In this document: positions 21,031-30,844 of the stretch, piece by piece
Numbering within the stretch: the stretch's first letter is position 1
Layout: every line of letters starts with the position of its first letter
Notes under the pieces: generated by a model
What the model was told of the DNA's origin: nothing
The model's input: only the letters and a program-made list of their open reading frames with translations
The model's database searches: none
Position numbers and translations under genes: made by a program
Assembly (NCBI GenBank): GCA_963666735.1
Contig: OY762926.1
Location: forward strand, 3,168,001-3,232,000
Length of the DNA: 64,000 nt
Direction of reading: 5' to 3'
Source: Gemmatimonadota bacterium
GTDB taxonomy: Bacteria > Gemmatimonadota > Gemmatimonadetes > Palauibacterales > Palauibacteraceae

Positions 21031-21347
21031 TCCTCCTCGACCTTGACGGCGGAGCCGTAGACGACGATCTCGGCGGTCCCGCCGAGGATGTAGGAGGTGG
21101 AAAAGCGGACACAGAGGATTGCGTTGGCGCCGAATGCCTCCGCCTCGCTCTCCATGCGATCGATCGCCTGTTCGCGCGCCTCGGCCATCATCTTCGTGTA
21201 CTCCTGGATCTCGCCGCCGACGATGGTCTTGAGGCCGGCGAGAATATCGCGGCCCAGGTGGCGCGCCCGGATCGTGCTGCCGCGGACGAGGCCGAACTCC
21301 TCCACGATGCGGTAGCCGGCGAGGTCGTTTCGGGAGGTGCTGATCAT
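21027..21347 (-). CDS. YbjQ / UPF0145 family protein
   Basis: GLVRGSTIRARHLGRDILAGLKTIVGGEI..Y..EAREQA, YGSAV. Confidence 0.93.
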   Translation of the reverse strand: MISTSRNDLAGYRIVEEFGLVRGSTIRARHLGRDILAGLKTIVGGEIQEYTKMMAEAREQAIDRMESEAEAFGANAILCVRFSTSYILGGTAEIVVYGSAVKVEED

Positions 21348-21814
21348 CGAACCACGTCCTTGTAGGGGTCTTTCTTCTGCATGAACAGGCGCTCGCGAAC
21401 GACGGAGACGAAAAGGATCACGAAGCCCGCGATCAGCACGAGCATCCCCCAGCGAATGTACACGGGCATCGTCGTGTCCCGAATCAACTCGCTGACGGCG
21501 GTCCACAGCGCCCACGTCCCCACAACGATCGTTCCCAGCGAGACCAGGACCCAGCCGATTCCGCGTTCGAGCCGGCGATAGACGTGTTCCCAGTAGCTGT
21601 CCCAGGTTTCTTCCGGCGGCTTCAGCGGACTCATGGTGTCGGTGACCTCCTTCAGGCGCTGGTATGTCGCCAGTTCGTCGCGAAGACCCGGGTCCTCGCC
21701 GAGCGCGGACTCGAGTTCGAGGCGTCCCTCTCCCGAAATCTCCCGGTCCAGTTCGGCCATCATCAGATGGCGCACCCGCTCGTCGCCGGGCGGATTCACG
21801 TTTCTCTCACTCAT
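21344..21814 (-). CDS. Putative membrane anti-sigma factor
   Basis: zf-HC2-like helical N-terminus without Cys, two TM helices, C-terminal DPYKDVVR; coupled to an ECF sigma gene. Confidence 0.7.
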   Translation of the reverse strand: MSERNVNPPGDERVRHLMMAELDREISGEGRLELESALGEDPGLRDELATYQRLKEVTDTMSPLKPPEETWDSYWEHVYRRLERGIGWVLVSLGTIVVGTWALWTAVSELIRDTTMPVYIRWGMLVLIAGFVILFVSVVRERLFMQKKDPYKDVVR

Positions 21815-22409
21815 CGCCCGCGCCTCCTTCCCGGCCGGGACGGGTCCCCGTCGTTTCGATGTCGCGTGCGAGGGAGCGCCGCGCCCGATAGAGGCGCGAC
21901 ATCACCGTGCCGATGGGGATTCCCAGCAACTCGGCGATCTCCCGGTAACGCAGTTCCTCGAACTCGCGCAGGACGAGCGTCTCCCGTTCCCGCTCCGGCA
22001 GCCGTTCGATGGCCGCGCCGACCTGTTCGCGCAGTTCGGCGCGCATGACCGCCTGGTCCGGGCTGGGAGGGCGCCGTCCCATCGTCGTATCCGTGAGCCA
22101 GCTGCCCGCCTTCTCGAGTTTCAGGCGGCGTGACCGCCGGTCCCGTGTATGGTTGAAACAGAGTCGTCGGATGATCTGGTACAGCCAGGGGAAGAAGGGA
22201 CGTTCGGGGTCGATCCTGGCGCGCGCGCGGAACGCCCTGGCGAAGGCCTCCTGCGAGAGGTCCAGGGCATCGTCGTGGTTCCCGACGAGGCCGAGCGCGG
22301 TATAGTAGGCACGCTGCATGTATCGTGTGACGAGTTCGCCGAAGGCCGCGCGCTCGCCACTCTGCGCGCGAAGAACGAGCATCCGGTCGGTTGCCTCCGA
22401 GCTGTTCAA
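21807..22409 (-). CDS. ECF RNA polymerase sigma factor
   Basis: DALDLSQEAF, PWLYQI, Y.EIAELLGIPIGTVMSRLYRAR. Confidence 0.95.
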   Translation of the reverse strand: MNSSEATDRMLVLRAQSGERAAFGELVTRYMQRAYYTALGLVGNHDDALDLSQEAFARAFRARARIDPERPFFPWLYQIIRRLCFNHTRDRRSRRLKLEKAGSWLTDTTMGRRPPSPDQAVMRAELREQVGAAIERLPERERETLVLREFEELRYREIAELLGIPIGTVMSRLYRARRSLARDIETTGTRPGREGGAGDE

Positions 22410-22523: not shown

Positions 22524-22973
22524 ATGGACGAGTTCCCGGTCAGAGCAACCCTGCAACCCGAAATCGTGCCCTCCCGCTGGACGCTCATCCGCGACGTGGC
22601 CGTCTTCCAGCTGAAACTGGTCCTCGATGGCCTGAGGGATGCGTTGCTGCTGCCGATCTCGCTCTTCGTCGCCCTCCTCGACGTACTCGGAGTCGGGCCC
22701 CGGGCGGGCCGGCAGTTCTACGAGCTGCTGGAGTGGGGGCGCCGGACGGAGTACTGGATCAACCTGTTCGGCGCCACGGACCATGTCCGCGCTCCGCTGT
22801 CGTCCCCGCGGCCCGGGGTCGATACGCTCGTCGACCGCCTGGAGCGGCTGGCGGTGCAGGAGTATGAGCGGGGCGGGATCACGGCTTCGACGAAGGATGC
22901 CGTGGACCGTGCCCTCGACCACCTTACGAAGCGCGGGCCCTCCGACCGCGATCTCTCCGGCCCCTCGCCGTGA
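22524..22973 (+). CDS. Conserved hypothetical protein
   Basis: RDVAVFQLKLVLDGLRDALLLP..WINLFG; good start context. Confidence 0.7.
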   Translation: MDEFPVRATLQPEIVPSRWTLIRDVAVFQLKLVLDGLRDALLLPISLFVALLDVLGVGPRAGRQFYELLEWGRRTEYWINLFGATDHVRAPLSSPRPGVDTLVDRLERLAVQEYERGGITASTKDAVDRALDHLTKRGPSDRDLSGPSP

Positions 22974-25521
22974 GCCGGACTTCCGCCGAGCGCGCGTGCG
23001 CTTCAAGTCCCTCCAGCCGGGCGAGCGCGGCGGTGTCGCGGAGCAGGTCCTCGTAGGCGGCATCTTCGGACGATAGCGACAGCCACGTCGGTCGGCGCAG
23101 GAACGAGAACACCGACAGTCCCGAGTCGAACGCCGCCGCGCCCGATGTGGGGAGTGTGTGGTTCGGTCCGGCTCCGTAGTCGCCGGCCGCCTCGGGCGTG
23201 GCCGCTCCCAGGAAGAGCGATCCGTAGCGGTGAACGGCAGGGGCGACCGCCTCGGCTCGCGCTCCGTGCAGGTGCAGATGTTCCGGCGCCACGGCGTCGC
23301 AGATGGCGGCGGCCTCGTCGGGGCCGGCCGCGAGGAGGGCGCCGCCGGCCGCCAGGGCCTGGCGCGCGACCGGTGCGGTCGGCAGCGTGGCCAACTGCCG
23401 CCCGGCCTCTTCGCGCACGGCCTCGACGGTCGCTTCGTCGAAGGCGCACAGAAGCGGGACGGCGTCGGGGTCGTGCTCGGCCTGGGCAAGCAGGTCGGCC
23501 GCGACGCGCGCCGGCGCCGCATCCGGCGAGGCGACGATGAGCAGCTCGGACGGGCCGGCGACGGTGTCGAGGCCGACACGACCGTAGAGGAGACGTTTGG
23601 CCGCGGTGACGAACCGGTTGCCCGGCCCCACGATCTTCTCGCAGCGGGAGACGCCTCCGACGCCGAAGGCGAGCGCGCCGATCGCCTGCGCGCCGCCGAT
23701 GGCGAGCAGCCCGTCCGCGCCGGCCATGAACGCCGCGGCCCGGACCGCGGCGTTCGGGCGCGGCGATGCGGCCCACACGCCGTCCACGCCCGCCACCCTC
23801 GCCGGGATGACGGTCATCAACACCGAGGAGGGGAGGGGGAAGCGCCCCCCGGGGGCGTAGCAGCCCGCCGCTCCGACGGGTACGAGCCGATGCCCGCCGC
23901 GGCCGCCCGCGACCGGCGTATCGAGGTCGGTCGCGGCCGCCCGCTGGGCCTCCGCGAACGCGCGGACCCGGTCTGCCGCGCGGTCCAGCAGCGCACGGTC
24001 GTCGGGGCCGAGTGCCTCTGTCGCGCGCTCGAGAGCGGACCGGTCGAGGAGCAGGTCGTCGCCCGGCTCGAGGTCGCCGAGCCGTTCGGCATGCTCGCGG
24101 AGCGCCGGCTCCCCGCGCCGCTCGACATCGTCCAGGATCGTCCGCGCGACCTCGAGGGCCGCCGGGTCGAGCGCCGGCGAGCGCACCGCCCGCACGGCTT
24201 CCTCGAGGCCGATCGGCGGCAGGATCCCGCCCGCAACCGCCGCGGCGGGGGCCACAGCCGTCCGACCGGCCGGCCCCCCCGGCGGCCTCGGAGCTCGGCG
24301 ATGCACCTTGAGGGCGCGCCGCTCGAGTTCGAGGCGCACGTCGCCGAGGGAGCCGCCGGCCTTCACGAGGCGCGTGAGCGCGAAGTAGTACAGGTCCGCG
24401 AACTCCGCCACCGCGTCGGCCTTCGACCCGGCTGCCGCCAGTTCATGCGCTTCCTCGACGAGTTTCCCCCGCAACAGTTCCGGATCTCCGGCGAGTCGCG
24501 CGGTGAGCGACCCCGGCTCCGGATCGGCGAGTCGCTCGCGGAGACGAGTCTCGAGATCGAGCGCATCGTCGAAGCAGGTCGGTGCGCCCGTGTGACAGAA
24601 GCCGGTCCCGCGCTGTCGCACCGTGAAGCGCAGCGTGTCGCGGTCACAGTCCGCCGCCACGCGGACGAGTTCCTGCGTGGCGCCGGAGGTCTCACCCTTT
24701 CTCCAGAGCCCTCGTGAGCGACTCTGGTAAACGCCGCGCCGTTCGCTGACGGCGGTGCGCAGGCTCTCCGCGTTCGACCAGGCCAGCCCGAGCGCGCGCC
24801 CGGCCGTGTCCTCGACCAGCGTCGCCCACAGCCCGTCGGCCCGGTCGGACCGCAGCGGAGCCGCGATGGCGTCCGCCAGGTCCATGCGCCCGCTGTAGAT
24901 CGCCATCCCCACCTGCGCGTCCGCACCCATTCGGTCCAGTGCGGCGATTTCCGAGACCTCGCGGACACCCCCCGCCACCGTGACGCGCGCGGATCCCGCG
25001 GCGCCGACGAGGGCGGATACGCGATCCAGCGGGATTCCGCCCAGCGTGCCCTCCACCTCTACGAAGGTGACCAGGTAGCCGTCCGCGAGGCCATCGAGTT
25101 CCTCCATCCGCCCGATGACGTCGCGGCGCGTACCGCGCTGCCAACCCTCCACGACGACCTCGCCATCACGAGCGTCGAGCGCCGCGATCACCCGTTCCGC
25201 GGGCAGTCCGTCCAGGACTTCGGGACTCGCCGCCGTGCCCAGGATCACGCGGCGCGCACCCGCGTCGAGCCAGTCGAGCGCCGCCTCGCGGGACCGAATG
25301 CCGCCGCCCACGCGACAGGGAGCGAGCGGGAGCAGTTCCCGGATGAGGGCGGCGTTGTCTCCACGGCCGAGCGCCGCGTCGAGATCGATGACCGCGACTT
25401 CCCCCGCGACCGCGAACCTCTCGGCCAGGGGCCGTGGGTCGCCGGCATCGATTTCCAGCGTGGAGCCCCGCCGAAGCTGCACGGCCCGGCCCCCCATGAG
25501 GTCGATGGATGGGATGATCAT
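22924..25521 (-). CDS. hisAIED: Tetrafunctional HisA-HisI-HisE-HisD fusion (865 aa)
   Basis: One open frame: IIPSIDL/VGGGIRS (HisA); LWRKGETSG/DCDRD/FCH (HisI); KLVEEAHEL/ADLYY (HisE); YAPGGR/IVGPGNRFV/AGPSE/QAEHD/APEHL/GDYGAGPNHTLPT (HisD). Confidence 0.92.
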   Translation of the reverse strand: MIIPSIDLMGGRAVQLRRGSTLEIDAGDPRPLAERFAVAGEVAVIDLDAALGRGDNAALIRELLPLAPCRVGGGIRSREAALDWLDAGARRVILGTAASPEVLDGLPAERVIAALDARDGEVVVEGWQRGTRRDVIGRMEELDGLADGYLVTFVEVEGTLGGIPLDRVSALVGAAGSARVTVAGGVREVSEIAALDRMGADAQVGMAIYSGRMDLADAIAAPLRSDRADGLWATLVEDTAGRALGLAWSNAESLRTAVSERRGVYQSRSRGLWRKGETSGATQELVRVAADCDRDTLRFTVRQRGTGFCHTGAPTCFDDALDLETRLRERLADPEPGSLTARLAGDPELLRGKLVEEAHELAAAGSKADAVAEFADLYYFALTRLVKAGGSLGDVRLELERRALKVHRRAPRPPGGPAGRTAVAPAAAVAGGILPPIGLEEAVRAVRSPALDPAALEVARTILDDVERRGEPALREHAERLGDLEPGDDLLLDRSALERATEALGPDDRALLDRAADRVRAFAEAQRAAATDLDTPVAGGRGGHRLVPVGAAGCYAPGGRFPLPSSVLMTVIPARVAGVDGVWAASPRPNAAVRAAAFMAGADGLLAIGGAQAIGALAFGVGGVSRCEKIVGPGNRFVTAAKRLLYGRVGLDTVAGPSELLIVASPDAAPARVAADLLAQAEHDPDAVPLLCAFDEATVEAVREEAGRQLATLPTAPVARQALAAGGALLAAGPDEAAAICDAVAPEHLHLHGARAEAVAPAVHRYGSLFLGAATPEAAGDYGAGPNHTLPTSGAAAFDSGLSVFSFLRRPTWLSLSSEDAAYEDLLRDTAALARLEGLEAHARSAEVRLTARGRRDRGRRARAS

Positions 25522-26285
25522 CGACGCACCGCGACCCCGAGCTGCTGCAGTCGATCCTTGAGTCTGCCGATCGACCATTCGCCCTGGTGGAAGATCGACG
25601 CCGCGAGCACGGCGTCGGCCCCGGCCTCGACCGCCGCGCACATGTGACCCGCATGGGCGCCCCCGCCGGAAGCCACGATCGGCAGCGGCACCGCCTCGCG
25701 GATCACGCCGATCAGGGCCAGGTCGTAGCCGCTCCGCGTACCGTCGCGGTCGAAGCTCGTGAGGAGGATCTCGCCCGCGCCGAGGGCCGCCGCGCGGCGA
25801 CTCCAATCCGCGGCATCGAAGCCGGTGCGTTGCCCTCCCGAGTGCGTCAGAACCTCAAAACCGCTCGGACACGCCTCGTCCGAGGTCGCGCCGGCGTCCA
25901 GCGCCAGCACGGCGCACTGGGCCCCGAAACGAGTCGCGATCTCCGACAGGACTTCCGGTCGCTCGACCGCCGCCGTGTTGGCCGCGACCCGGTCCGCCCC
26001 CGCTTCCAGCAGAGCGCCCGCGTCCTCCGCCGTCCGCACGCCGCCGCCGACCGTGAGCGGAATCGAGATCTCATTGCGAACGCGGCCGACCGTCTCGAAC
26101 CGGGCCACCCTTCCCTCCGCCGTGGCCGAGACATCCAGAATCACGAGTTCGTCCGCCCCTTCGCGCTCGTAGCGTCGGGCGAGCCGGGCGGGGTCGCCCT
26201 GATCTTCGAGGTTGTCGAAACGGACGCCCTTCACAACCCTGCCGTCCCTCACATCCAGGCACGGAATGACCCGAACGTTCAGCAT
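25518..26285 (-). CDS. hisF: Imidazole glycerol phosphate synthase cyclase subunit
   Basis: RVIPCLDV.DGRVVKG, GADELVILD, GAGEILLTSFDRDGT, LAASIFH. Confidence 0.96.
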   Translation of the reverse strand: MLNVRVIPCLDVRDGRVVKGVRFDNLEDQGDPARLARRYEREGADELVILDVSATAEGRVARFETVGRVRNEISIPLTVGGGVRTAEDAGALLEAGADRVAANTAAVERPEVLSEIATRFGAQCAVLALDAGATSDEACPSGFEVLTHSGGQRTGFDAADWSRRAAALGAGEILLTSFDRDGTRSGYDLALIGVIREAVPLPIVASGGGAHAGHMCAAVEAGADAVLAASIFHQGEWSIGRLKDRLQQLGVAVRR

Positions 26286-26962
26286 GCCGCCGCGAGCGCG
26301 GGCCGTTCCACGCGCCGTTCGAACTCGGCTGCCGCGCCCGGCGCCTCTGCGAGCCATCGCTTCAGCAGGCCGGCGCCGACCTTCCCCGACAGCTCCGGGT
26401 GGAACTGGCAGGCGAGGACTCCGCCGCGCTCCAGTCCCGCCACGAACCGGCTTCCGTGCCGCCCCATCGCGGCGGTCCAGCCGGCGGGCCCCGCTTCGAG
26501 CCCGTAGGAGTTGGCGAAATAGACGATGGATGACCTCAGGAACGTGGTCCCGGCCGGGGCGCCGAGACGGTTCCAACCCAACTGGGGAACCCGGCAGTTC
26601 TCCGCCAATCGGACCACGCGGCCCGGCACACACCCAAGACCGGCGGTGCCCGGAGCTTCCTCGCTCTCCTCGCACAGGAGTTGAAGCCCGAGACAGATGG
26701 CGAGCGTCGGCCGTCCCTCCGTCACGCGCCGGCGGACGGCCTCCGCCCATCCACGCCGGCGAAGTTCCGCCATGCCTCCGGCGAAAGACCCCACGCCGGG
26801 GAGGATGACGTAATCGGCGCTCGAGATCCCGGCCGCGGAATCCAGCAGCCGCGGGGTTCTTCCCAACCGCCGGAAAGCGGCCGCCACCGCCTCGAGGTTC
26901 GCCACGCCCGTCGGGACGATCCCCACATCGTCCGGGCCCGTCGCCACGCGCGCGGCGCTCAT
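26279..26962 (-). CDS. hisH: Imidazole glycerol phosphate synthase glutaminase subunit
   Basis: ILPGVGSF, ICLGLQ, QFHPELSG. Confidence 0.95.
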   Translation of the reverse strand: MSAARVATGPDDVGIVPTGVANLEAVAAAFRRLGRTPRLLDSAAGISSADYVILPGVGSFAGGMAELRRRGWAEAVRRRVTEGRPTLAICLGLQLLCEESEEAPGTAGLGCVPGRVVRLAENCRVPQLGWNRLGAPAGTTFLRSSIVYFANSYGLEAGPAGWTAAMGRHGSRFVAGLERGGVLACQFHPELSGKVGAGLLKRWLAEAPGAAAEFERRVERPALAAAC

Positions 26963-27648
26963 CGGGACACCGTCTCAAGGGCCCCGGCCCCCGCGTCCTC
27001 TTCCACGTCGGCCGCGGGCAACTCGCCCGATCCGAGCACTCCCTTCGTGCTCGGGACTCCGGCCGCGGAGCGTTCCGCCACCGCTTCGGCGAGGGCGAGC
27101 CCGAAGGCCTTGAAGGCGGCCTCCGCGCGATGGTGGTCGTTATCGCCGCGGATGACATCCAGGTGAAGCGTCAGGCCTCCCGCCGTGGCGAGCGAGGCGA
27201 AGAAATGGGTGAGATTCTCGGTCGCGACGGCCCCCATCATTTCGCGCCGGAGGCCGAGGTCCACCTTGCCGAAGGGACGTCCGGAGAGGTCCACGACCGC
27301 CCGGGCCAGCGCCTCGTCGAGAGGCGCGTAGGCGTACCCGAAGCGGCGAATCCCCTCCCGGTCCCCGAGTGCGTCGCGGATGACCGAACCGAATACGAGC
27401 CCGCAATCTTCCACCGTGTGGTGATCATCGATGTCGAGGTCGCCCTGAGCGCGCAGGTCCAGCGTCATGCCGCCGTGAAAGACCGCGGCGCCGATCATGT
27501 GATCGAGAAACGCCAGTCCCGTATCGATGCGGCTGCGTTCCCGCCGGTTCAGGTCCAGCCGGGCTTCGATGCGGGTCTCGAGCGTTCGGCGCGACCGTTC
27601 TCCCGCCCGCCGGGTGGCCGAGCGACCCTCTCTGGAGTCCGCGTTCAT
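26959..27648 (-). CDS. hisB: Imidazoleglycerol-phosphate dehydratase (monofunctional)
   Basis: DDHHTVED and NDHHRAEAAFKA motifs, PSTKGVL. Confidence 0.95.
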   Translation of the reverse strand: MNADSREGRSATRRAGERSRRTLETRIEARLDLNRRERSRIDTGLAFLDHMIGAAVFHGGMTLDLRAQGDLDIDDHHTVEDCGLVFGSVIRDALGDREGIRRFGYAYAPLDEALARAVVDLSGRPFGKVDLGLRREMMGAVATENLTHFFASLATAGGLTLHLDVIRGDNDHHRAEAAFKAFGLALAEAVAERSAAGVPSTKGVLGSGELPAADVEEDAGAGALETVSR

Positions 27649-27658
27649 GGAATCCCCC

Positions 27659-28675
27659 TCACGAGATGTGTCCAAACGTCGTGTCGAGCACACGGAGGAT
27701 GCGGCGGAACGCCGCCTCGTCCCCCGGAAGCGTGATCCGGACAAGGTCCGGGAGGTTCGGAAAGCGTCGGATGGCGATGCCGCGCTGCCGAAAGCGGCGG
27801 TACAGCGCGGCCGCCCGATCCGTGGATGCGAGCACGAAGTTCGCTTGCGACTCGAAGGGCGCCGCCCCTGCCGCGAACAGCGCCGAGACAAGCTCCTCGC
27901 GCTCGCGGCGCACGGCGGCCACGTACGTCCCCGTGACCCGGTCGCCCAACGCCAGCGCCCGTTCCGCCAACCAGATGGAGGGGGCCGAGAGCGGGAAGGG
28001 CGCACCGCAGGCCCGCAGCTCCGCGATGACCGCCGGCCGGCCCAACGCGAAACCCACGCGAAGCCCGGCGAGGCCCCAGGCCTTGGACAGCGTCCGTACG
28101 ACCAGAATGTTGTCGTGCTGCAGCAGTTCGGGTGTCGGGTCGCGGTCGGCGAACTCGACGTAGGCGAGATCCGCGAGCAACATCGCCTTCGCCGGCAGGC
28201 GGTCGGCGATGGTCGGGACCCGCCCGGCCGGGACCGCCGTTCCCGTGGGGTTGTGCGGCGAGATCACGGTGACCAGCCCCGTCCGTTCCCCGAGTCGGTC
28301 GAGTATGGGTTCAAGAGGAGCGGGGTCGTTCAGCGACGGTATCGACCGTACCCGCCCGCCCGCGAGCGCCGCGAACATCGGCACCATCTCGAACGTCGGA
28401 GCCACCGTGATCAGTTCCCGGCCTCCGGCGAGACAGCGGCGGCAGGCGCGGTCGATCGCGTCGTCCGCCCCCGCGGTGACGAGCACCCGGTCCGGCTCGA
28501 TCCCCATGGCTTCAGCCAGTCGTCGCTCCAGCCTCGAGGCATCCGGATAGCGCGTCAGCGTGCTCGCCGGAACCTTCGGGAGGAGACGGACGAGTTCCGG
28601 CGCCGGAAACAGGCGCTCGTTGTGATCGAGCCGGAGCCGTTCGCCCGGTCGCGCGGCCACCGCCATTCCGTTCAT
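27659..28675 (-). CDS. hisC: Histidinol-phosphate aminotransferase
   Basis: LDHNE, SPHNPTG, DLAYVEF, RTLSKAWGLAGLRVG. Confidence 0.93.
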   Translation of the reverse strand: MNGMAVAARPGERLRLDHNERLFPAPELVRLLPKVPASTLTRYPDASRLERRLAEAMGIEPDRVLVTAGADDAIDRACRRCLAGGRELITVAPTFEMVPMFAALAGGRVRSIPSLNDPAPLEPILDRLGERTGLVTVISPHNPTGTAVPAGRVPTIADRLPAKAMLLADLAYVEFADRDPTPELLQHDNILVVRTLSKAWGLAGLRVGFALGRPAVIAELRACGAPFPLSAPSIWLAERALALGDRVTGTYVAAVRREREELVSALFAAGAAPFESQANFVLASTDRAAALYRRFRQRGIAIRRFPNLPDLVRITLPGDEAAFRRILRVLDTTFGHIS

Positions 28676-29538
28676 GCGACGATCTGGCCCGGCGTCGTCA
28701 CGACGAGATCGGTACCGCCTTGCGCCTTGACGCGGGGGATCAGGCCCGGAAGGGCTTCGCGCAGCACTGCGACCCGGATGGCGTACCCCTCTTCGCCGTG
28801 CAGACGCGAAACGGTCGGCTTGCGCATGCAGGGAAGCACGGCCACCAGGTCGTCCAGTCGCACCGCATCCACGTTGACTTCGAGCATGATCCGCTGCCGG
28901 GCTTCCACGACCGACTTCAGCACCACGACCAGGTCGTCGATTCGCTTGCGGTGCCGGGGATCCTCGAGCGCCCGCGGGTTTGCGTAGAGGCGAGTCGATG
29001 AGGTCATGAGTTCGTCGACGATCCCGAGCCCGTTGGCGTCGAGCGTCGCGCCCGTCGCGGTGTTGTCGACGATCACGTCGGCGTCCTCCGGCGGAAACAC
29101 CTCCGTCGCGCCGTACGATCGCACGAGCGTCGCATCGAGGCCCCGGGTTTCGATCCAGCGCGAGGCAAGCCCCGTGTACTCGGACGCTATCGTGAGGTGG
29201 CGGCCGGCGGCGTGCAGTCCCGCCCGGGCGACCGGGGCCGGAGCGGCGGCCACGAGGCGCACCGGGTCGAGCCCGGTGTCCAGCAGCTCGACGAGCGATC
29301 CGTTCAGTTCCGCCACCCAGTCGGCCCCCGCGAACCCCAGGTCGCGAGACCCCGCATGCAGCATCTCCACGACGTTCTGCGGCTTGAGCAACTTGGCGCC
29401 GAAGCCGGGGACCGAGATGACCGGACGGTAGCGGCGCTCTCCGAGATCCACCCGCACGCCGGCGGCGGTCAGCAGTTCGAGCACGCCGGACTGCATCCGT
29501 CCCTTGGGCAGGGCAAGTCTTGTCGTCTTGTGATTCAT
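28672..29538 (-). CDS. hisG: ATP phosphoribosyltransferase (long form)
   Basis: LALPKGRM, DLGFAGADW, GATE, DVIVDNTATGATL; C-terminal regulatory domain present. Confidence 0.95.
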   Translation of the reverse strand: MNHKTTRLALPKGRMQSGVLELLTAAGVRVDLGERRYRPVISVPGFGAKLLKPQNVVEMLHAGSRDLGFAGADWVAELNGSLVELLDTGLDPVRLVAAAPAPVARAGLHAAGRHLTIASEYTGLASRWIETRGLDATLVRSYGATEVFPPEDADVIVDNTATGATLDANGLGIVDELMTSSTRLYANPRALEDPRHRKRIDDLVVVLKSVVEARQRIMLEVNVDAVRLDDLVAVLPCMRKPTVSRLHGEEGYAIRVAVLREALPGLIPRVKAQGGTDLVVTTPGQIVA

Positions 29539-29596: not shown

Positions 29597-29623
29597 AAAA
29601 AAAGCCGGCCACCCCGGGCCGGC
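29597..29623 (-). terminator. Attenuator terminator of the his operon
   Basis: Minus strand GCCGGCC-cggggt-GGCCGGC followed by 7 T, about 60 nt upstream of hisG. Confidence 0.85.
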
Positions 29624-29664: not shown

Positions 29665-29727
29665 TCACCGGCCTCCGCGCACGCGGTGGAAAAAATAATG
29701 GCCGAAAAACGGATGGGTGTTCGTCAT
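29665..29727 (-). CDS. hisL: his operon leader peptide MTNTHPFFGHYFFHRVRGGR
   Basis: 20-codon ORF with 3 His, 4 Phe and 1 Tyr just upstream of the terminator; its 3' end can pair with the terminator 5' arm. Confidence 0.8.
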   Translation of the reverse strand: MTNTHPFFGHYFFHRVRGGR

Positions 29728-29842
29728 GGGCGCGGAGGATCGCATCGCGCCGTTAGCTTGTCAAGCCGGTGACCCGGCGCGCTCCCGCGGCGTCGACCGG
29801 CTGCCGGACCCAGGACCGCTCCACCTCAACCCCGGGGAAACC

Positions 29843-30844
29843 ATGACCGAACCTCCGGCCTCCGGCCCCCGGCCCCCGACGCCGGCCGAGAGCCGCGAGA
29901 CACGAGCGCGCGTCGCGCCGTGGATCGAACGCACGCCCGCAAGACGCTGGATTCCCGACCGCGGCGTCGCGTCGCTGCCCGCGGGAGTTCAGCTCTTTCT
30001 CAAACTGGAACTCTTCCAGCGCACAGGTTCCTACAAGGTCCGCGGCGCCCTGAACAACGTCCTCCGCGCGGAGGCGGAGACGCTGCGCCGAGGCGTCACG
30101 GCCGTGAGCGCCGGGAACCACGCCATTTCCGTGGCGTACGCCGCTCGGGCCGCCGGTACGACCGCCAAGGTCGTCATGCTGTCATCCGCCAATCCGGCTC
30201 GCGTCGCGCGCTGCCGGAACTTCGGGGCGGAAATCGAGTTCGCGGACGACGGGGCGGCCGGCTTCGCGCGCATGGAGGAGATTGCCTGGCAGGAGGGCCG
30301 GCTCGGGATCCATCCGTTCGAGGGCGAGGCGACCGTGTTCGGCACTTCGACCGTCGGCCTCGAGGTCGCGGAGCAACTGCCCGATCTCGACGCGCTCGTG
30401 GTTCCGGTCGGCGGTGGGGGGCTCATCTCGGGGACCGCGAGCATCGTCAAACAGCTTGTGCCGGAGTGTCGCGTCTACGGGGTGGAACCCGTCGGCGCCG
30501 CCTCCATGCGACGCAGCCTGGATGCGGGCGAGCCGGCGGCCCTCGATCGCATCGACACGATCGCGGACAGCCTCGGCGCACCCCACGCCGCGCCGTACAG
30601 CTTCGGCCTCGTGCAGCGCTACGTGGACGATGTCGTGCTCGTCGATGACGACGCGATTCGCGCCGCCCTGAAGGCGCTGTTCGTCGACGCGAAGCTGGTC
30701 GCCGAACCCGCCTCCGCCGCGCCGCTGGCCGCCGTGTGCGGCCCCCTCCGGGAGAGGCTGGAAGGTTGCCGCGTCGGCCTCGTGCTCTCCGGGTCGAACA
30801 TCGATCTCGACACGTTCTCCGCGCACATCCGGGCAAGCGGGTGA
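29843..30844 (+). CDS. PLP-dependent threonine/serine dehydratase
   Basis: KLELFQRTGSYKVRGA, SAGNHA, VGGGGL, SGSN. Confidence 0.92.
   Translation: MTEPPASGPRPPTPAESRETRARVAPWIERTPARRWIPDRGVASLPAGVQLFLKLELFQRTGSYKVRGALNNVLRAEAETLRRGVTAVSAGNHAISVAYAARAAGTTAKVVMLSSANPARVARCRNFGAEIEFADDGAAGFARMEEIAWQEGRLGIHPFEGEATVFGTSTVGLEVAEQLPDLDALVVPVGGGGLISGTASIVKQLVPECRVYGVEPVGAASMRRSLDAGEPAALDRIDTIADSLGAPHAAPYSFGLVQRYVDDVVLVDDDAIRAALKALFVDAKLVAEPASAAPLAAVCGPLRERLEGCRVGLVLSGSNIDLDTFSAHIRASG

Follow-up and report, generated by a model that had tools for sequence, protein, structure and literature searches.

A 64,000-nucleotide stretch of a Gemmatimonadota genome (assembly GCA_963666735.1, contig OY762926.1, positions 3,168,001 to 3,232,000; hereafter the window) holds a histidine operon in the order hisG-hisC-hisB-hisH-hisF-[AIED], whose last gene joins hisA, hisI, hisE and hisD in a single frame (Table 1; single letters stand below for the corresponding His domains). 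The translation contains one stop codon, at its end, and the initial ATG overlaps the stop codon of hisF (ATGA, 25518-25521). All four domains lie above the Pfam cut-offs, namely His_biosynth at residues 1-213 (E 3e-38), PRA-CH at 246-317 (1e-25), PRA-PH at 322-402 (1e-9) and Histidinol_dh at 455-850 (6e-119). A first-pass annotation, made from the letters of this DNA, had described the same 865-codon frame with these domains in this order, a Pro/Ala/Gly linker and several short motifs, and the translation and the domain scan agree with it throughout, all the quoted motifs being present. We regard it as probable, with good confidence, that the product is an intact housekeeping multi-enzyme, that the E-D fusion is recurrent, and that fungal His4 is chimeric, the window protein being its convergent cousin.

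The genome (3.98 Mb in a single contig, 94% complete) gave one match each to PF00815, PF01502 and PF01503 and two to PF00977, the latter being the fusion gene and hisF. Each of these four family searches gave matches in 14/14 control genomes, and tblastn agreed on single copies of all four domains, so that the lack of separate hisA, hisI, hisE and hisD genes, claimed earlier for the operon, holds genome-wide. The HisI ligands, the HisE acids and the HisD residues given in Table 1 were invariant in 78/78 fused proteins; we take the HisE acids to form a MazG-type acidic motif and the HisD residues to have zinc-binding or catalytic roles. The HisI positions align with the ligands listed for Medicago HISN2 in the part of Witek (2021; PMC8102479) covered here, and the HisD domain scored 382.6 bits against TIGR00069, above its cut-off of 243.8. 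An AlphaFold2 (AF2) model built from a 78-sequence alignment predicted confident domains (mean predicted local distance difference test, pLDDT, 89.8; predicted template modelling score, pTM, 0.54), their relative placement not being fixed by the model, and a disordered linker (residues 411-430, pLDDT <50). Residues 1-224 of the model match substrate-bound HisA/PriA (Z ~29.5, root-mean-square deviation, rmsd, 1.6-1.7), with S. enterica HisA 5a5w at Z 29.4, rmsd 1.7 and 224 aligned residues, while residues 432-857 match HisD, with which the paralog HpsN ties by fold.

Table 1. Features of the histidine operon in the window (aa, amino acids; IGP, imidazoleglycerol phosphate; PR, phosphoribosyl; ProFAR, phosphoribosylformimino-aminoimidazole carboxamide ribonucleotide)
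Feature	Positions	Strand	Basis and remarks
hisA-hisI-hisE-hisD fusion gene (P0001)	22924..25521	-	865 aa; translation, Pfam, NCBIfam, model, structure match
HisA (ProFAR isomerase) barrel, aa 1-221	24859..25521	-	Pfam, PriA alignment, structure match, conservation; acidic catalytic positions D7 and E157
HisI (PR-AMP cyclohydrolase), aa 222-318	24568..24858	-	Pfam, alignment; D291 C292 D293 D295 C309 H310 C316
HisE (PR-ATP pyrophosphatase), aa 319-408	24298..24567	-	Pfam, alignment; E356 E357 E360 E373 D376
Pro/Ala/Gly linker, aa 409-435	24217..24297	-	in most relatives a stop codon overlaps the hisD start at the same place
HisD (histidinol dehydrogenase), aa 436-865	22924..24216	-	TIGR00069; Q680 H683 E747 H748 D781 H788 E837 H842
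hisF	25518..26285	-	TIGR00735, above cut-off
hisH	26279..26962	-	TIGR01855, above cut-off
hisB (monofunctional IGP dehydratase)	26959..27648	-	PF00475
hisC (aminotransferase)	27659..28663	-	PF00155 and operon position
hisG (long form)	28672..29538	-	profiles; start (29538) taken from the sequence
Putative attenuator terminator	29597..29623	-	7-bp GC stem followed by T7; sequence, function inferred
Putative leader peptide	29665..29727	-	20 aa with 3 His, 4 Phe, 1 Tyr; sequence, function inferred

A homologue search gave 233 matches, and among the 120 listed are proteins of Gemmatimonadota, Phycisphaerales, Deltaproteobacteria and Myxococcota as well as eukaryotic transcripts; nearly all of the 120 carry the four Pfam domains, and the named database copies among them mostly bear the sole label 'histidinol dehydrogenase'. 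Homologues at 97% identity carry the name Ca. Palauibacter, which points to this genus for the window, and named sources containing the window DNA include sponge metagenomes. Across 75 GTDB loci, drawn from the best 80 of 493 confirmed, A-I-E-D stood in one frame at 8 and A-I(-E) was followed by a separate downstream hisD gene at 53, the rest being A-I-E with D not in view (6), D only (7) and canonical (1). A 4-nt ATGA/GTGA overlap was found at 35 of the 49 split E/D pairs (hand count), and the linker of the window gene, examined for a leftover start/stop overlap, showed none. Within the phylum of the window, full-length one-frame matches occurred in 14 of 301 genomes, namely the window's own genome (G000), 12 of the 16 others of its genus, and G192, while A-I-E alone was counted by eye in at least about 41 genomes among the matches listed. 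G056, a genome not yet published, was used for these counts and for nothing else. Four genomes of the same genus (G241, G255, G260 and G298; 93-95% complete) gave a weak match or none with the fusion-protein query, and histidine synthesis has possibly been lost in some of these symbionts. G211, considered as a split relative, was discarded, its apparent internal TGA being the terminal stop.

The fused label requires 9 changes on the 90-row D tree and 9 on the 79-row HisI-HisE (IE) tree, 3 changes being forced by starred branches. In approximately unbiased (AU) tests on a 29-row concatenation, monophyly of the 12 fused rows was rejected (p-AU 0.0056), as was that of the fused rows together with the amoebae (p-AU 0.0017). 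On the sequence evidence, HisA-I-E appears to be the stable unit and the bacterial E-D fusion labile and recurrent, and repeated fusion by frameshift at the overlap is the simplest reading. The opposite course, a fused state ancestral in the bacterial family with split operons arising by repeated fission, seems to us rather unlikely: unrooted change counts cannot polarise the changes, and the eukaryotic members with I-E examined are fused to D, which leaves it some room, but no hisD lies beside the A-I-E gene in the deepest branches (L081, L083, L085 and L100), split genes outnumber the fused ones and for the most part show the identical 4-nt overlap, and the linkers of the fused lineages differ in both length and sequence.

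The first-pass annotation had also suggested a living bacterial relative of the His4 ancestor, with HisIE segments closer to His4 than to bacterial HisIE. For the HisIE this proved correct: it shares a median 52% identity with 12 fungal His4s vs 39% with 21 canonical HisIEs, and each of the motifs [ST]DRxDGL and GFCH was found in 12/12 fungi and in 0/21 canonical HisIEs. When the 21 canonical HisIEs serve as root, the IE tree joins the 12 fungi to 5 amoebozoan-type proteins in a clade (99/95) that excludes the window protein. This clade nests within the bacterial A-I-E family (100/98), where deeper-branching bacterial A-I-E proteins lie outside it; in a quick tree that also includes choanoflagellates, 28 of the 29 eukaryote-type rows fall together (Shimodaira-Hasegawa, SH, support 92). 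Palauibacter proteins were not the preferred sister of the eukaryotes in the IE trees, although a clade of amoebae and Palauibacter was not rejected on the concatenation (p-AU 0.095), and the IE trees do not appear to single out the donor phylum of eukaryotic A-I-E.

The separate D tree, in contrast, places the fungi away from the window protein. The window HisD has a median identity of 36% to fungal HisD, whereas two fungal HisDs reach 53-55% (median) to Bacteroidota HisD, and chytrid HisD stands at 56-59% to the best Bacteroidota HisDs vs 38% (median) to the fused operon-type HisD. The best PDB matches of a fungal HisD profile were Medicago, Elizabethkingia and E. coli; fungal HisD nests with Bacteroidota (100/98), and one clade of fungal and operon-type HisD was rejected (AU p 2.9e-61, 21 rows vs 17). 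Its source is not pinned here to Bacteroidota, because Fani et al. (2007; PMC1963479), in the part covered, grouped fungal with plant HisD. Operon-type HisD was found in the Amoebozoa, namely Copromyxa and Protostelium (A-I-E-D-C-HAD), Paramoeba (H-F-A-I-E-D), and Acanthamoeba and Stygamoeba (H-F-A-I-E-D-G), in the choanoflagellates Salpingoeca, Monosiga, Hartaetosiga and Mylnosiga (the last as H-F-decayedA-I-E-D), and in haptophytes, Chromera and Lotharella too. Further fusions of this HisD (P0244-P0312) are to HisG in haptophytes and to HAD, HisC and HisB in Chromera and Lotharella; several proteins join it to a PALP-family domain (PF00291), and P0238, a choanoflagellate-like protein of 1296 aa, has two tandem HisD domains. 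A derivation of yeast His7 from the same operon was considered and found no support, the Acanthamoeba H-F part scoring 205 bits to yeast His7 vs 292 to Thermus HisF.

The domain in front of the fungal I-E was compared in 115 His4-type proteins gathered with an amoebozoan IE query, the named ones all fungal, whose N-termini span 173-274 aa. Those of early-diverging fungi visibly resemble the HisA of the window family, and a profile of 14 of them matched it at 96% (E 4e-9, 160 columns), vs 31% for canonical HisA and 31% for HisF. Choanoflagellate-like N-termini matched the window-family HisA at 99%, vs 66% for canonical HisA and 58% for HisF, and the early fungi at 97%, hence forming a bridge between the two, whereas the control profiles of HisH, HisG and HisB stayed below 2% and the reversed and 5 shuffled profiles below 0.2%. 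In an AF2 model of Wickerhamomyces His4 (fungal-only alignment of 97 sequences), residues 1-190 show 8 strands with helices interleaved (block pLDDT 82-96) and match S. enterica HisA at Z 14.6 and rmsd 2.9 over 175 aligned residues. The GGG, VExEG and GMA motifs occur in 0/115 fungal N-termini and in 113-114/114 bacterial copies. Pfam assigned no barrel family to the N-termini of two fungal proteins and one choanoflagellate protein, the ESM Atlas gave one weak lead for a fungal N-terminus (0.77), none of the Foldseek matches listed for the His4 model reached the N-terminus, and a PDB sequence search found no His4 chain. Profiles and model together lead us to conclude, with high confidence, that the His4 N-terminus derives from HisA as a decayed barrel. 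Partly decayed barrels with an operon-type HisD were also seen in P0122, P0241 and P0291, and the position of P0122 among amoebozoans suggests that the barrel decayed more than once.

Since fungi combine an IE of the A-I-E family and a decayed barrel with a HisD of foreign type, His4 is almost certainly chimeric, and the window protein appears to be its cousin, not a preserved ancestor. Descent of the whole fungal His4 from a single A-I-E-D ancestor, of which the bacterial four-domain protein would be a living relative, is decidedly unlikely. Domain order and size are as in His4, the fungal IE nests in the family, the N-terminal barrel is homologous, the IE and D of amoebozoans and choanoflagellates descend from the family, and the amoebae may still stand as sister of the Palauibacter clade, but the fungal HisD belongs to another lineage, and among bacteria fused genes are scattered and in the minority. 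The kinship suggested earlier therefore stands for HisIE and the N-terminus and fails for HisD.

The HisA domain reads TFVEVEGT, in which the absence of the usual Asp had already been noticed; the segment aligns with TDVTKDGT of PriA, placing E157 at the Asp of DGT. Glu occupies this position in 56/56 proteins sampled by taking every second member of the bacterial set, in 70/70 of the locus frames, in 4/4 of the distant members and in 10/10 of the intact barrels from eukaryotes, D7 being conserved in 54/56, 68/70, 4/4 and 10/10 of the same sets with gaps in the rest. The (beta/alpha)8 barrel, the two phosphate loops and the N-terminal Asp are all present. The acid of the DGT loop is presumably the catalytic Asp176 of Salmonella HisA, and D7N/D176A variants are named in the PDB titles of the HisA structures matched. 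The change from Asp to Glu thus appears as a family-wide trait and no defect of this copy, and because of this, and because the genome has no other HisA, Glu157 most likely replaces the usual Asp as the acid of the domain. A HisA that is dead or altered through this substitution, and that has a scaffold role, as seems to be the case for the His4 N-terminus, is very improbable: it scores below the HisA equivalog cut-offs, 7/10 canonical HisAs sampled read TDxxxDG, and barrels of the same family decayed in eukaryotes, yet no other HisA is present in the genome, the Glu and phosphate-loop motifs occur in 113-114/114 bacterial copies vs 0-7/115 fungal N-termini, and the model lies at rmsd 1.6-1.7 from substrate-bound HisA/PriA.

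The continuity of the frame across the domain junctions, on which the first-pass claim depended, is borne out by independent assemblies. Contigs from three runs of three studies, among the 4 of 24 listed runs checked, read through the E-D joint free of indels: X5 (24198-25334) spans the A-I and I-E joints too and shows 0 differences, X10 (24159-24460) shows 0 and X13 (24154-24405) shows 4, while the contigs of RNA run X19, from a relative, do not reach the E-D joint and are silent on a single transcript. An assembly or sequencing frameshift that joined two genes artificially is a practically negligible explanation even though the E-D joint is split in most relatives from outside the genus, for independent contigs bridge it, 12 same-genus genomes are fused and all four Pfam domains occur in nearly all of the 120 best of 233 homologues.

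Several points weigh against this overall reading. The HisA, HisIE and HisE domains miss the NCBIfam equivalog cut-offs, HisA scoring 135.5 against 228.95 (TIGR00007) and 142.8 against 243 (NF010112). Ascomycota alone matched the window-family HisA at only 73% (vs 45-49%) and all fungi at 78% vs 46-64%, with canonical HisA at 64%; the His4 N-terminus model ties with GlpP antiterminator barrels (Z 14.6 each), and the assignment to HisA therefore rests on profile similarity, position and intermediates. P0291, with its decayed barrel, was placed among bacteria, outside the eukaryote clade. The trees were built without plant, E. coli or S. cerevisiae sequences and were flagged for composition bias driven by guanine-plus-cytosine (GC) content, the first D tree and the choanoflagellate-bearing D and IE trees are quick trees, the AU tests on the concatenation used LG+F+G4 with short searches, and an amoebozoan IE sequence served as query for the fungi and a fungal sequence for the Bacteroidota. 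Trees cannot tell whether fusion or fission was the repeated event, and one single fusion could be scattered across them by operon transfer.

The fusion protein would perform steps 2, 3 and 4 of histidine synthesis and the two final oxidations: HisE would convert PR-ATP to PR-AMP, HisI would form ProFAR and HisA its phosphoribulosyl isomer (PRFAR), which would be released to HisH/F, HisB, HisC and a phosphatase before HisD turned histidinol into histidine. HisIE and HisD have dimer surfaces, through which the protein may oligomerise, while the linker would leave HisD flexibly tethered. The stably fused A, I and E act in successive steps; D is non-consecutive, which, with the variable linker and the sporadic fusion, suggests stoichiometry or drift and not channelling. 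As to its origin, a widespread bacterial HisA-I-E gene, translationally coupled to hisD by the 4-nt overlap, would have been fused to it by frameshift at the overlap several times, once in the ancestor of the genus-level clade. The same A-I-E family would have entered eukaryotes, where amoebozoans would keep an intact A-I-E-D, choanoflagellates and fungi a decayed barrel before I-E, and only fungi would use a HisD of Bacteroidota/plant/E. coli type. We lean slightly towards an H-F-AIE-D segment acquired and fused before the split of Amoebozoa and Opisthokonta, kept whole in amoebae and as H-F-deadA-I-E-D in Mylnosiga, with the HisD displaced in place on the fungal stem; such a history would make yeast HIS4 a three-layer fossil of dead HisA barrel, bacterial-operon HisIE and swapped HisD, and the family would also form a Glu-acid class of ProFAR isomerase.

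The bacterial A-I-E family may thus be the missing relative of HIS4, a classic yeast gene, whose N-terminus would gain an identity open to test by structure and truncation. The E-D joint would offer repeated natural cases of the passage from operon overlap to fusion, and advises caution in the use of fusions as phylogenetic markers. As named copies are mostly labelled only as histidinol dehydrogenase, pathway reconstructions for sponge symbionts such as these, and for other bacteria not in culture, can miss hisA, hisI and hisE. The chemistry of the four enzymes is already known.

Upstream of hisG, the His-bearing leader and the terminator suggest that the operon is probably under attenuation. 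Same-genus leaders keep the mix of His and aromatic residues and most other lineages have His runs; a short upstream open reading frame (ORF) with at least 3 His was present at 41/52 loci, some probably by chance, and the putative leader may sense Phe/Tyr besides His. GC content is 70-73% in the operon and 65-70% in the flanks, and this closeness therefore gives no sign of recent transfer. The operon (22924-29538) has no histidinol-phosphate phosphatase, while in many related operons hisC carries a fused HAD domain; a HAD-like match elsewhere in the genome (G000:C1:2453534-2453824, 37% over 97 aa) is a candidate. A PALP-family gene (29717-30844, +) is divergent from hisG. A convergent 149-aa ORF with no Pfam match (22524-22973, +) overlaps the last 50 nt of the fusion gene, the overlap holding its basic C-terminal tail, which varies among relatives. 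At 21344-22409 (-) lie an ECF sigma factor (PF04542, PF08281) and then a 156-aa membrane ORF, presumably anti-sigma-like.

Three published accounts, each covered in part, bear most directly on this protein. Fani et al. (2007) gave His4 an N-terminus of 160-220 residues of unknown function and without homologue, found no prokaryotic HIS4-like protein and placed fungal HisIE apart from all sampled prokaryotes and plants. Witek (2021) reported, from a similarity network, a trifunctional PRA-PH/PRA-CH/ProFAR isomerase in some Gammaproteobacteria and Spirochaetia and placed fungal HIS4 near Myxococcales, the parts covered mentioning neither a four-domain bacterial form nor the His4 N-terminus. Rice et al. 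(2018; PMC6029752) described a heptafunctional Acanthamoeba histidine protein of 1682 aa that includes an A-I-E-D core. The covered parts of PMC8305728 and PMC7284861 report no such fusion, and a literature search, mostly without subscription papers or supplements, found no account of a bacterial A-I-E-D protein or of the His4 N-terminus as a barrel. The objection that the architecture might be common or described already therefore holds in part: it is common in databases, with A-I-E and the Acanthamoeba core in print, and the bacterial four-domain form is the part for which no account was found.

Compared with these systems, the window protein shares with fungal His4 the I-E-D order behind a front domain of ~200 aa, an IE of the same family and, by the models, a barrel fold at the front; it differs in that its barrel is intact with conserved motifs, lost in fungi, and in that the fungal HisD comes from another lineage. 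The A-I-E-D core of the Acanthamoeba protein is intact and belongs to the same family, with Glu at the acid position and an operon-type HisD, and the H-F-A-I-E-D order of the protein equals that of the bacterial operon, but it is eukaryotic and adds HisH, HisF and HisG in one chain. The bacterial HisA-HisI-HisE of Witek (2021), judged by its description and not by sequences, is very probably of the same family, from which the window protein differs by the joined HisD. Canonical HisIE, HisA/PriA and HisD share its folds and active-site residues, but are separate genes with Asp, not Glu, in the DGT loop, and HpsN is set apart by GDK where the window D domain, like HisD, reads GDY. With the bacterial A-I-E operon family, finally, the window gene has in common both the A-I-E fusion and the G-C-B-H-F-AIE-D order.

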